DNA of 7,647 bases from a virus (Duplodnaviria; Heunggongvirae; Uroviricota; Caudoviricetes): IMG/VR virus record IMGVR_UViG_2690316243_000010; one strand, written 5' to 3'. Shown here piece by piece: positions 4,556 to 7,304 of this stretch. The notes below the pieces were generated by a model. It was not told where the DNA came from. It searched no databases and saw only the letters and a program-made list of their open reading frames with translations. The stretch's first letter is position 1, and every line of letters starts with the position of its first letter. A program made the translations under genes and the position numbers.

Positions 4556-4750
4556 ATGAGTACAGTCCTTTCCCCAATGGTTTCAGAATTTGAGACAGTT
4601 GAGCAAGAAAATAGTTACAACGAATGGCTGCGGGCCAAAGTAGCAGCAAGCCTCGCGGATCCCCGCCCGGCGATTCCGCATGATGAGGTAATGGCGGAAA
4701 TGGAACAAATTATTGCCCAAATTGCTGCTGCAACTCACAGAGGTGAATAA
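4556..4750 (+). CDS. paaA2: Antitoxin of the ParE-family toxin (PaaA2-like), 64 aa
   Basis: Small acidic protein. GAGGAG Shine-Dalgarno at 4541-4546. Stop TAA overlaps the toxin start (TAATG at 4748-4752). Sits immediately upstream of a RelE/ParE-fold toxin gene. Confidence 0.8.
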   Translation: MSTVLSPMVSEFETVEQENSYNEWLRAKVAASLADPRPAIPHDEVMAEMEQIIAQIAAATHRGE

Positions 4751-5040
4751 TGTTACCCGTTTTATGGCTACCATCTGCTCGTGATGATTTGCGCCAGATC
4801 GTAGCCTACATAGCTAAAGAAAATCCCGCGGCAGCACGCAGAATGAAAATTCGAATTGAAACATCCGTTTTGCCGCTCACAGAGCATCCTTACCTGTATC
4901 CTCCAAGCGAGCGAGTTCTTGGTCTTCGTGAAATTGTAACTCATCCTAACTACATCATCCTTTACCGAGTAACAGCATCAAGCATAGAAGTAGTAAATAT
5001 TGTGCATTCTCGAAGACAGTATCCAGGCAAAAACAGTTAA
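4750..5040 (+). CDS. parE2: ParE/RelE-superfamily toxin (ParE2-like), 96 aa
   Basis: Size, 1-nt overlap with the upstream antitoxin, and sequence character (basic C-terminal region ...IVHSRRQYPGK) are typical of ParE/RelE toxins. Followed by an intrinsic terminator. Confidence 0.85.
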   Translation: MLPVLWLPSARDDLRQIVAYIAKENPAAARRMKIRIETSVLPLTEHPYLYPPSERVLGLREIVTHPNYIILYRVTASSIEVVNIVHSRRQYPGKNS

Positions 5041-5472: not shown

Positions 5473-5849
5473 TGAGGCTGACGATGGAATTTAAAGATTT
5501 ACCGTCTGATGTACAGAAAACAGCAGCTCATACATTGCATTCTGTGCTGCGAGAAATCGGGAAAGATATTGCAAGCGAGCCAGCAAAAGATCTGGCCCGG
5601 AAAATCAAGACCGCTTTCGTTGAGCTTTATAATGTTGGCACTGACTCTGAAACTGTCGAGACCAAGACCGTAAGTTCACCAATATTCTCACTTGAGCCAA
5701 GCGTATTATCAGGTGAAATATGCACCGAGATTTCCAGCGAACTGCTTCCGGTAATACGAGAAGCAATTCGCCGTCGCGGTTTGGATGGAAGTTATGATCA
5801 TGACGTTCTGCAAGTTCTCAGGACAATGGTGACTTCACTGGGGATTTGA
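5472..5849 (+). CDS. Hypothetical early-left protein, 121-125 aa (start at 5472 by coupling, or at 5484 with a GAGG Shine-Dalgarno)
   Basis: ORF coupled to the upstream small gene. Acidic and not Arg-rich, so not an obvious N-type antiterminator. No family recognised. Confidence 0.55.
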   Translation: MRLTMEFKDLPSDVQKTAAHTLHSVLREIGKDIASEPAKDLARKIKTAFVELYNVGTDSETVETKTVSSPIFSLEPSVLSGEICTEISSELLPVIREAIRRRGLDGSYDHDVLQVLRTMVTSLGI

Positions 5850-6018
5850 TCCCTGCGTCCTCTAAGCTTTTGATATAGCGGTCCTCCAAGAAGCGGTAAA
5901 TTTTGTCGAAATCATCTTTTCCCTCTGGTTTATTCAGAGGATTACAGGACCCGTAAGTAGCGGCATACATTTCAACCGTTTTATCAAAAATATAAGAGAC
6001 AAATTCTTCTTTAGTCAT
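5818..6018 (-). CDS. Small hypothetical protein, 66 aa, convergent with and overlapping the 3' end of the upstream + strand gene
   Basis: ATG at 6018..6016 with AAGGA Shine-Dalgarno about 8 nt upstream. Coding region visibly more AT-rich than its neighbours. Hydrophilic, no transmembrane segment. A possible -35/-10 pair (TTTAAC, 17 nt, TATCCT on the minus strand) lies about 25 nt upstream. The 5' extension in the ORF track is probably not translated. Confidence 0.5.
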   Translation of the reverse strand: MTKEEFVSYIFDKTVEMYAATYGSCNPLNKPEGKDDFDKIYRFLEDRYIKSLEDAGIKSPVKSPLS

Positions 6019-6218
6019 ATAGATTTCCTTCTTGGTTATTCGGGATAAGAAGGATACCACCTCGCCTGACGTGGTTAAAAGCAGGCACACAACGCGAAAT
6101 GACGCGGCGGTAAGTATGGCGGAGTTATTCCTTCCCCGTTGAGGACACCGGGTTGTCAGGTTGACCATACGCTTAAGTGACAACCACGCCACAACACTCC
6201 ATGTTGATTGGTACCTTT

Positions 6219-6259
6219 GGCGGCATCAGTTTCATTGCTGGCTGATGTCCGCCCTTTTT
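6219..6259 (+). terminator. Rho-independent terminator, + strand only
   Basis: 11-bp stem GGCGGCATCAG (6219-6229) pairs with CTGATG(T)CCGCC (6242-6253) with one bulged T and a 12-nt loop, followed by CTTTTT. The opposite strand has no U run after the hairpin. Confidence 0.7.
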
Positions 6260-6260
6260 A

Positions 6261-6427
6261 AAGTGAATTTTGTGATGCGGTGAATGCGGCTCAGCGCACG
6301 CGGCACAGTTAAAAAGCGATTAGTTCCCCCGTATCGGGTGGTTATGGGTTTCCCTGTATCCGGCGTTAATTGTTAACTGGTTAACGTCACCTGGAGGCAC
6401 CAGGCACCGCATCAACAAAGTTCACTT
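6261..6427. repeat. Imperfect 22-23 bp inverted repeat flanking a 122-bp repeat-rich segment
   Basis: Left arm AAGTGAATTTTGTGATGCGGTG at 6261-6282. The reverse complement of the right arm at 6405-6427 is AAGTGAACTTTGTTGATGCGGTG (21 of 23 positions, one indel). The interior holds GTTAAC-TG-GTTAAC (6372-6385), hairpin CCTGG-AGGCA-CCAGG (6390-6404) and direct repeats CCGTATCGGG / CTGTATCCGG. Confidence 0.6.
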
Positions 6428-6746
6428 CGGTGATGAAAGGAAAGAGAAAATGTTGAATGTAGCTATTGAAAACCAGAACGGGTGGAATTATAGTGCACCT
6501 GCACCTTATAAAACGGGTGCCGGGCGTGGAAACCCGAACGTTACTCGAGCGCATAGCCGCGCTGAAGCGGTTTTTTTATGCGTAATGCACAGCTCCATTC
6601 AAATTATGGTGGGATGTGCAGGGCAGTCGCAAGACTGGCCGGGTTCTCGAGTGACCGGTATTTCCACCCCTGTACGTCTCACCACCCTTATGGTCGTGGA
6701 AAACCTCGGTGGTGAGTTAATTAACTTATCACTCGAGGATGCCATC

Positions 6747-7304
6747 ATGGCTACTATCCCTGCCCTTTCTCACCCTGACGTAACCATCGAAAATGGTCGC
6801 GCTGTCACTACGTCTATTGCGATCGCAGAGTTCTTTGGCAAGCGTCACGACAATGTGTTACGTGCCATCGCAAATACTGAATGCTCACCTGAATTTAACG
6901 CCCTCAATTTTGAGGACGTCACCTACACTGACGCCAAAGGCGAAAAACGCCCGATGTACCAAATCACCAAAAACGGCTTCGTTTTCCTGGTGATGGGATT
7001 CACTGGCAAAAAAGCCGCTGCATTTAAAGAAGCCTACATTGCTGAGTTCGATCGCATGGAGGCCGAACTGCGCCAGAATAACACCCCACCCACTGACAAA
7101 ATAATTCCAGGCGATGGCCGCACCCTGGTTGTTCACTTCGACGAACGCGGCAACATCAGATTCACCGAAACCGTTCCTGATGGCGCACGGGTCTGTACCA
7201 TGGAGACTTTCCGGTTTTATCTGGAAGAACAGGGATGGACTCTTGTTAACCGGGGCGCAATTAAAAATATGACTGTAGAGCAATTACTCAAAATTCATTG
7301 TTGA
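6747..7304 (+). CDS. Rha-family phage regulatory protein (Phage_pRha domain), about 185 aa
   Basis: ATG at 6747 with GAGGA Shine-Dalgarno 7 nt upstream. Sequence block AIAEFFGKRHDNVLRAIAN...MYQITKNGFVFLVMGFTGKKAAAFKEAYIAEFDRME is characteristic of Rha/ORF6N-type phage regulators as I recall them. The in-frame upstream extension to 6450 has a possible Shine-Dalgarno but non-protein-like composition, so the start is uncertain. Confidence 0.8.
   Translation: MATIPALSHPDVTIENGRAVTTSIAIAEFFGKRHDNVLRAIANTECSPEFNALNFEDVTYTDAKGEKRPMYQITKNGFVFLVMGFTGKKAAAFKEAYIAEFDRMEAELRQNNTPPTDKIIPGDGRTLVVHFDERGNIRFTETVPDGARVCTMETFRFYLEEQGWTLVNRGAIKNMTVEQLLKIHC

Follow-up and report, generated by a model that had tools for sequence, protein, structure and literature searches.

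The inverted repeat downstream of a prophage dicF-like gene closes a predicted RNA domain of the STnc100/PasD family and is probably an RNase III processing site

Introduction

The window analyzed here is the whole 7,647-nucleotide stretch of IMG/VR virus record IMGVR_UViG_2690316243_000010 (Caudoviricetes). At 6261-6427, ahead of a Rha-type open reading frame, two long arms that are nearly perfect reverse complements enclose a segment rich in smaller palindromes. What does so long a repeat do at this position, and to which neighboring gene does it belong? A first-pass annotation, made from the sequence alone, had offered several answers: a long-range RNA stem closing a structured leader, perhaps a nut-like or processive-antitermination-type element or a riboregulator of the Rha operon; a DNA platform for several proteins; or the footprint of a small inserted element. 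Here, we use homologues of the block, covariation analysis and covariance models to weigh these possibilities.

Results

The arms form the strongest inverted repeat in the window

The 5' arm (AAGTGAATTTTGTGATGCGGTG, 6261-6282) and the 3' arm (CACCGCATCAACAAAGTTCACTT, 6405-6427) pair as a 22-bp helix with 21 Watson-Crick pairs, one T/G (G-U) pair at 6268/6420 and one bulge, A6414. The count of 21 complementary positions among 23 in the first-pass annotation was therefore correct, with the T/G pair and the extra A6414 making up the difference. Inverted repeats in the window were ranked under rules that permitted a single mismatch, a single bulge and loops no longer than ~240 nt, and 100 shuffled sequences served as control. 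The arm pair ranked at the top with 21 matches, whereas the shuffles averaged 13.0 and never exceeded 16; the repeat search divides it into two repeats (I1 and I2) because of the indel. At the RNA level, the fold of 6255-6432 has a free energy of -70.2 kcal/mol, compared to -49.9 +/- 4.2 kcal/mol for shuffled sequences (z = -4.8), and none of 200 shuffles folded as well. The smaller elements noticed on first inspection are also present: GTTAAC-TG-GTTAAC lies at 6372-6385 and the hairpin CCTGG-AGGCA-CCAGG at 6390-6404. The flanks are likewise as described, with a terminator-like site (6222-6249) and a T run upstream and an ATG at 6450 downstream.

Sequence comparison places the block in a dicF cassette

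Upstream of the block lies a lambdoid set of genes for immunity and replication (encoding a DUF1627 protein, an IstB/DnaC-like ATPase, YdaT, a cro-like HTH protein, a repressor-like HTH protein and ParE), and the plus strand is therefore that of the left, dicBF-type early operon. The block is flanked by the following features:

6206-6254, plus strand: DicF-like small RNA (Rfam DicF, RF00039, 38.8 bits, E 2.9e-7, under the gathering threshold of 48 bits; aligns with K-12 dicF)
6222-6249, U-tract to 6259, plus strand: DicF terminator hairpin, directly 5' of the block (terminator scan)
6466-6494, plus strand: promoter-like site TTGAAA-17-TATAGT, outside the block and marking the module boundary
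6488-6540: C4 target site a1b1 (Rfam)
6501-6577: isrK with its terminator (Rfam, 61 bits)
6602-6689: C4 antisense RNA (Rfam, 77 bits)

The block, arms included, aligns with the dicF-dicB spacer of Qin, a prophage in E. coli K-12. A stretch comprising DicF and the block is found in 4638 of 5426 complete E. coli genomes (~85%), mostly at 80-90% identity, and in many phages. Homology among the prophages ends at the 3' end of the 3' arm (6427), and at least four unrelated modules follow it: dicB, a 77-aa ORF, a 94-aa ORF or, in the window, Ash/isrK/C4/Rha. The stop in homology and the unrelated modules beyond it argue that the block forms the 3' portion of a dicF cassette that is itself conserved, and that it is not part of the Rha operon. 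The Rha unit itself is a module of the P1 immI or Gifsy isrK kind with its own promoter-like site; its ORF (6450-7304) has Pfam matches to Phage_ASH (residues 14-109) and Phage_pRha (residues 120-204). Describing the block as "upstream of the Rha operon" is not specific: the promoter-like site at 6466-6494, isrK and C4 intervene before Rha.

Three observations on the cassette and its neighbors can be added. The stretch from 6466 to 6689 forms a complete control module like that of P1 immI or Gifsy-1 isrK, ahead of a Rha-type antirepressor. The DicF-like RNA at 6206-6254 has kept the terminator half of K-12 DicF while its 5' seed half has diverged, and judging by the altered seed half this variant may have a different target set. 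Copies of the DicF-block stretch with 83-85% identity to the window also occur in PP818812.1 and MT713136.1, deposited as Actinobacillus phage vB_Apl-pPE4 and Aeromonas phage AP1, respectively; these unexpected hosts could reflect contamination, mislabelling or real transfer.

The closing stem acts as plus-strand RNA

We aligned 59 distinct dicF-linked copies (alignment A2) and analyzed them with RNAalifold and by counting pairs. The stem formed by the arms, hereafter P1, has 19 consensus pairs in which 99.2% of cells are paired, compared to 31-46% when the partner strand is slid. Three of the pairs are doubly compensated, UA to CG in 5 sequences, AU to GC in 5 and CG to UA in 2. None of 500 shuffles reached the observed covariation score, which derives from a few lineages of closely related sequences in an alignment with a mean column identity of 79%. 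P1 contains 76 G-U cells, with at least one in each of the 59 sequences, and at one position G-U is the commonest pair (45/59). On the minus strand, pairing falls to 92.9%. G-U pairs in every homologue and the better pairing of the plus strand rule out a DNA palindrome and show that the stem functions as strand-specific RNA.

The arms have thus been kept as a compensatory pair among homologues, as expected for a long-range RNA stem closing a structured RNA. This part of the first-pass interpretation is borne out by the covariation, by the G-U pairs that exist on the plus strand only and by the covariance-model match described below; its more specific proposals (nut or processive antitermination, Rha riboregulator, protein platform and inserted element) are not supported, for reasons given in the Discussion.

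The arms enclose a predicted five-helix domain with a pseudoknot

Comparative modeling shows that P1 closes a folded RNA domain of ~145 nt, which comprises five helices (P1 to P5) in addition to a pseudoknot. Its predicted elements in the window are:

6261-6282, plus strand: P1 5' arm (inverted repeat, covariation)
6283-6285, plus strand: J1/2, the near-invariant AAU of the GGUGAAU motif (family alignments A3 and A4)
6286-6301, plus strand: P2 hairpin, GCGGC / GC(A)CGC, loop UCAGC (covariation, family alignment)
6302-6361, plus strand: P3 region, a 3-bp closure of 6302-6304 with 6359-6361 around a variable small-hairpin insert (A2)
6306-6312, plus strand: pseudoknot 5' strand CAGUUAA (repeat I5, partner-swap test)
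6362-6388, plus strand: P4 hairpin, 6362-6370 with 6380-6388, loop 6371-6379 (covariation)
6373-6379, plus strand: pseudoknot 3' strand UUAACUG, in the P4 loop (partner-swap test)
6390-6404, plus strand: P5 hairpin CCUGG-AGGCA-CCAGG, abutting the P1 3' strand (family alignment)
6405-6427, plus strand: P1 3' arm (covariation; homology ends here)

This fold accounts for the smaller palindromes. The "double HpaI palindrome" of the first-pass annotation corresponds to the P4 loop and the P4 3' strand, and the loop also holds a pseudoknot strand; the "boxB-sized hairpin" is P5, the invariant helix of the family described below. In the P3 closure, one pair (alignment columns 50/121) changes from AU to CG in 9 sequences, and the insert that it encloses differs in length and sequence among homologues.

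The pseudoknot joins a strand located 2-4 nt after P2 to the P4 loop, and more than 25 different complementary helix sequences occur at this same position. Because the register of the helix shifts by ~1 nt among members, which makes column counting unsuitable, we used a per-sequence partner-swap test. Strands formed a mean of 7.08 bp with their own partner and 5.36 bp with swapped partners, and none of 1000 permutations reached the observed value. In the window, the loop strand ends 8 nt before the UCACC at 6387, where 7-8 nt is expected of the family.

Because GTTAA is present three times in copies linked to dicF, their pseudoknot 5' strand (A)ACAGUUAA (6305-6312) can alternatively pair with UUAAUUGU(U) (6366-6373), the P4 5' strand. 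This pairing would compete with P4; it may represent a switch, or it may simply result from the repeats. Copies with an altered P4 strand (L050, L135 and L199) retain only the loop pairing. The stacking of P5 on P1 and the five arms suggested tRNA-like mimicry as a further candidate, and ARAGORN finds nothing.

The spacer in K-12 Qin is a direct homologue of the block, located at the same place directly after the DicF terminator and with arms, P2, P4, P5 and pseudoknot sequences in common. By comparison, the window differs in its P3 insert, in an extra bulged base and an outer extension in the 3' arm, in its divergent DicF and in its downstream module (isrK/C4/Rha instead of dicB).

The domain belongs to a temperate-phage RNA family that includes STnc100 and PasD

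A scan of viral contigs with the P5 motif returned more than 120 loci. Most of them represent another sequence class, NNN-GGTGAATCCCCCTGTGCGGAGGGGC ... TCACCGGGAGGCACCCGGCACC-NNN, whose members are free-standing small genes: a promoter-like region precedes the folded domain, and a single-stranded stretch of ~25 nt leads from it to a terminator. These copies lie after Q, after stx2B and before the esterase gene, or directly after a late promoter; a Klebsiella phage locus (L126) provides an example of the last, with a family member directly after a late promoter and ahead of terminators. The free-standing class matches STnc100 and PasD of the literature. STnc100, PasD1 and PasD2 are Hfq-dependent prophage sRNAs of Salmonella, EHEC and EPEC, and PasD was detected on Northern blots as a discrete Hfq-dependent sRNA (PMC8550237).

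We built a covariance model (R1, 124 positions) solely from 37 STnc100/PasD-type sequences, with no dicF-linked ones among them. In the window, R1 matched 6269-6418 over model positions 1-124 of 124 with 56.9 bits (E about 3e-16), covering P1, P2, P4 and P5. Full-length matches were also obtained in the K-12 dicF-dicB spacer (L002 2450-2587, 56.1 bits) and in the ban operons of phages P1 (L123 2494-2627, 58.6 bits) and P7 (L124 2494-2623, 67.5 bits). The Rfam model of STnc100 (RF02076) scored the block at 31.6 bits over model positions 22-154 of 206, under its gathering threshold of 47; Rfam scans of the window gave no match to a riboswitch or ribozyme family, and the block matched only STnc100 at this sub-threshold score.

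The helices are compensated between the classes. All five pairs of P2 are exchanged, from CCCCC/GG(A)GGG in the STnc100 type to GCGGC/GC(A)CGC, and P5 shows a double compensatory change from CCGGG/CCCGG (STnc100 type) to CCUGG/CCAGG, so that the window has the fully compensated variants of both. In other members, the P2 and P5 variants assort independently. Window and STnc100/PasD share a P1 that ends in GGUG/CACC, the AAU, a P2 of 5 bp that carries a pentaloop and a bulged A, a P4 loop that forms the pseudoknot and a P5 of the form CCNGG-AGGCA-CCNGG stacked on P1. These data show that the domain belongs to a broad family of temperate-phage RNAs of which STnc100 and PasD are the described members.

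The window copy differs from these sRNAs in its setting. STnc100 and PasD lie between Q and the lysis genes, whereas the window copy lies in the early-left operon after DicF. Unlike them, it is without its own promoter and without a 3' single-stranded tail and terminator: it begins 2 nt past the DicF U-tract, and no terminator precedes the promoter-like site at 6466-6494, in contrast to the free-standing copies in L010 and L016. Its P1 is 22 bp long, compared to about 8 bp in STnc100/PasD.

Other arrangements of the family were also observed. STnc100/PasD-type copies form tandem arrays with a period of ~250 nt, each copy with its own pseudoknot and P3 sequence; such arrays occur in L065 (4374-5465 and 8374-8521, six copies), L010 (2320-3356, four copies), L017 (367-994), L015 and L048. 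The ban operon of phage P1 (L123; AF234173) has an annotated "dicF-like region" at 1212-1313 (AF234173 68472-68573) and a copy of the domain with a short P1 at 2494-2627 (AF234173 69754-69887), directly 5' of tciA. The corresponding short-P1 copy of phage P7 (L124 2494-2623) is directly 5' of terB. In both operons the domain lies ~1.2 kb 3' of the dicF-like region, beyond two tRNA genes, so that P1-type phages have the cassette split into its two parts.

A long P1 accompanies DicF and is a probable RNase III site

The length of P1 depends on genomic position. A DicF-type terminator directly precedes 62 unique copies, and in 61 of these P1 measures 20-29 bp; the remaining one is a recombinant. 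In all 87 copies elsewhere P1 is 4-13 bp long, most often 8. A long P1 is therefore tied to adjacency to DicF. At 22 bp, with one bulge and one G-U pair, the stem of the window reaches the duplex length recognized by RNase III (~two turns, about 20 bp or more).

In K-12, the 72-nt DicF is attributed to RNase III (Faubladier 1990, as cited in passages of PMC5069750 and PMC9438474). The annotated 53-nt dicF (NC_000913.3:1649382-1649434) ends at 1649434, which puts the end of the 72-nt species at 1649453; within the 5' arm of 22 nt, this is base 13. Transferred by alignment to K-12, the end given in those passages falls at ~6273 of the window. In Table S1 of Gordon 2017, position 1649470 appears as a coverage peak dependent on rnc and labeled "dicF-dicB", with 26 reads in the rnc deletion and 0 and 0 in the wild type; its coverage is low, and it stands among many similar low-count entries. 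Ragunathan 2023 (PMC10448788) credits RNase III with forming the 5' end of a DicF species of 190 nt and leaves a 3' cut unmentioned, and secondary accounts of the role of RNase III thus differ from those that cite the 72-nt RNA. Inspected by eye, the K-12 stretch upstream of dicF showed no complementarity to the 5' arm that would pair it with the site of the 190-nt 5' end.

We favor, as the probable explanation, that P1 is an RNase III processing site that parts DicF from the downstream RNA and frees the STnc100/PasD-family domain. Transcripts would contain the block only where RNA polymerase has passed the DicF terminator. In copies directly after DicF, P1 spans ~22 bp in place of the usual ~8 bp, and this length, roughly two turns of double-stranded RNA, would make it an RNase III substrate. 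The enzyme would then cut in mid-arm, at about 6273/6274 and about 6416/6417. RNase III cuts with a 2-nt stagger, and it is this stagger that predicts the partner cut near 6416/6417.

Processing of this kind would have three consequences. The DicF portion of read-through transcripts would acquire a 3' end, that of the 72-nt species in K-12. The inner domain would be freed with a P1 stub of ~9 bp, the P1 length of the free-standing members. The downstream RNA would receive a new 5' end just before the ribosome-binding site of the next gene. RNase III dependence and the approximate cut site are carried over from the literature on the K-12 homologue, and it is by this analogy that we infer cleavage in the present prophage, release of the domain and an effect on the downstream gene. 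Since the DicF terminator of the window looks strong and a separate promoter-like site serves the isrK/C4/Rha module, polymerase may seldom read across the block, and processing may be minor for Rha.

Comparable stems are well known. The long-range helices that flank 16S and 23S rRNA, the lambda N-leader and the sites in T7 early mRNA are RNase III stems, and their duplexes are likewise of ~2 turns. Like them, P1 of the window flanks a structured RNA, and a staggered double cut would free this RNA and part the cistrons. Unlike them, it encloses a domain of ~130 nt, and its 3'-arm cut and the release of the domain are predictions.

Discussion

The repeat could also work without being cut. The stem might serve as a structural clamp in cis that lets the domain fold inside a long mRNA, with RNase III cleavage incidental or absent in this prophage, and the folded block could then act on its own transcript, for example as a 5' stabilizer or as a modulator of ribosome access. 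The position of the block fits such a role: the next ribosome-binding site begins 10-25 nt after the 3' arm, and the distance from the conserved core to the next start codon is 25-45 nt whichever of the four downstream variants follows, so that the block always precedes the ribosome-binding site. The minimum-free-energy fold of 6200-6450 even extends the pairing, from the DicF U-tract to the purine-rich stretch before the ATG at 6450, but this extension is not kept in the K-12 type. A clamp leaves unexplained why the 72-nt DicF of K-12, as described in a passage of PMC5069750, ends inside the arm and why stems of ~22 bp are limited to copies adjacent to DicF. Moreover, the downstream genes are mutually unrelated and one module brings its own promoter-like site. 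We regard a clamp as unlikely. The same observations speak against a riboregulator dedicated to Rha, since the block also precedes dicB or two other unrelated genes and Rha has its own promoter-like site, isrK and C4. Another alternative assigns the activity to the pseudoknotted core, as a sensor, a catalyst or a binder of protein or RNA polymerase (riboswitch, ribozyme or put-like antiterminator) that steers downstream read-through or processing, the long stem being simply its P1. The complexity of the fold, with five helices and a pseudoknot, speaks for such a function, as do the unpaired GGUGAAU, GCGG/CCGG and loop AGGCA, which are near-invariant while the stems covary. Some members, such as that of the Klebsiella phage, directly follow a late promoter ahead of terminators, and the alternative pairing between the 5' strands of the pseudoknot and P4 in class-a copies could provide a switch. 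However, the block is located after the DicF terminator and not before it, neither a candidate ligand nor a cleavage site can be named, and no riboswitch or ribozyme family of Rfam matches. Strong antitermination is difficult to reconcile with an evidently working terminator ~25 nt after the free-standing members or with PasD as a discrete Hfq-dependent sRNA on Northern blots (PMC8550237). Overall, we consider control of this kind improbable.

Antitermination elements of known type can be assessed more directly. They resemble the family in being cis-encoded structured RNAs of early or late phage leaders, and some members follow promoters as putL does. Lambda nut needs boxA and boxB, which are absent here, and the block lies 3' of the terminator it adjoins. 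A search of the window for boxA (CGCUCUUA-like) gave chance-level matches, none of them on the plus strand near the block. Lambda-type boxB has a GNRA-like pentaloop, from which we take the P5 loop AGGCA to differ, as it presumably does from that of P22; the AGGCA hairpin is instead the invariant helix of mostly free-standing sRNA genes. A nut-like role is therefore discounted. The put element is a ~70-nt RNA with two stems (PMC9378689), whereas the domain of the window is ~145 nt long with five helices and a pseudoknot. Run with filters off on the whole HK022 genome, R1 returned a best score of 8.2 bits (E 0.62), and none of the matches listed fell between the transposase gene (27580) and gene O (30029), the interval to which we infer that the immunity region with pL and pR should map. 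With nothing found in HK022 and a different architecture, relatedness to put is not supported. Two explanations at the DNA level were also weighed. The palindromes (GTTAAC twice, CCTGG/CCAGG) and the immunity-type module nearby would suit an operator or cruciform bound by a phage regulator, but the palindromes are P4, the pseudoknot and P5, and compensatory substitutions change them in such a way that a binding sequence is not kept. The strand-specific G-U pattern, with at least one G-U pair in the stem of every homologue, also points to pairing in RNA; a palindromic operator, and with it the protein-binding platform of the first-pass annotation, is thus highly improbable. Terminal inverted repeats of ~22 bp around ~120 bp, present in thousands of genomes and several contexts, might instead recall a small non-autonomous mobile element of the MITE kind. 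A check for target-site duplications found none (the flanks are TTTTTA and CGGTGA), and long arms occur only beside DicF, while the short arms of other copies differ and covary, with no single sequence kept. The stem has obligatory G-U pairs, and the interior is a conserved RNA fold common to sRNA genes with promoter and terminator. An inserted element is accordingly the most improbable of the explanations we weighed. RNase III processing at P1 remains the reading we prefer.

Collectively, these data indicate that the inverted repeat is real and functional, yet mostly accounted for by known biology. RNase III processing of DicF and the STnc100 family were already known. The placement of the dicF spacer in the STnc100/PasD family and the pseudoknot with a P1 of context-dependent length appear to be absent from the literature we searched; a search with the P5 sequence string returned no matching papers. 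DicF is a textbook prophage sRNA, and the spacer after dicF has nevertheless been handled as anonymous. It can now be placed in the STnc100/PasD family, and the coincidence of the extended P1 with the RNase III end of the 72-nt DicF offers a structural basis for that step. The analysis also predicts a further RNA product that is directly testable. The covarying pseudoknot, the invariant unpaired nucleotides and the tandem arrays suggest that abundant Hfq-bound prophage sRNAs of EHEC, EPEC and Salmonella carry a conserved domain. More speculatively, and with considerable reservation, we propose that the dicF cassette yields three products, DicF, the downstream protein and an RNase III-excised, pseudoknotted RNA of ~140 nt of the STnc100/PasD family. 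In this tentative proposal the conserved core of the family, which often occurs in tandem with as many as six copies in one phage, would serve specifically in binding (of a protein, RNA polymerase or a ligand) or in catalysis (self-cleavage) and not as a passive scaffold for base-pairing sRNAs.

Additional features of the locus

Several observations concern the surroundings of the cassette. About 100 nt 5' of DicF, TAAGTATGGCGGA (6111-6123) complements the 3' half of the DicF terminator (6248-6260). Its K-12 counterpart pairs L002 ~2276-2298 with the 3' half of dicF, and in the minimum-free-energy fold of K-12 this long-range upstream pairing replaces the DicF terminator hairpin. Such pairing could be connected to the RNase III cut reported for the 190-nt DicF precursor. 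Just 5' of the DicF precursor region, a minus-strand ORF of 66 aa (5818-6018) converges on the plus-strand operon; it has a good ribosome-binding site, AAGGAAAT, before its ATG at 6018 and no Pfam match. Further upstream, the early-left operon includes a ParE-family toxin (4750-5040), preceded by a small ORF (4556-4750) that could encode its antitoxin; both lie after the repressor-like gene and before the dicF cassette. Near the left end of the window, 198 positions (112-309) are a run of N, masked or unsequenced. On the other side of the block, the ORF at 6450-7304, which is called "Rha family protein" in RefSeq-style annotation, reads through the isrK and C4 RNA genes. Judged from the sequence, Rha could in truth start at 6747, where an in-frame ATG follows a GAGGA ribosome-binding site. 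The Phage_ASH match of this ORF covers exactly the isrK/C4 RNA region, and the "Ash" protein domain may here largely represent translated conserved RNA genes.
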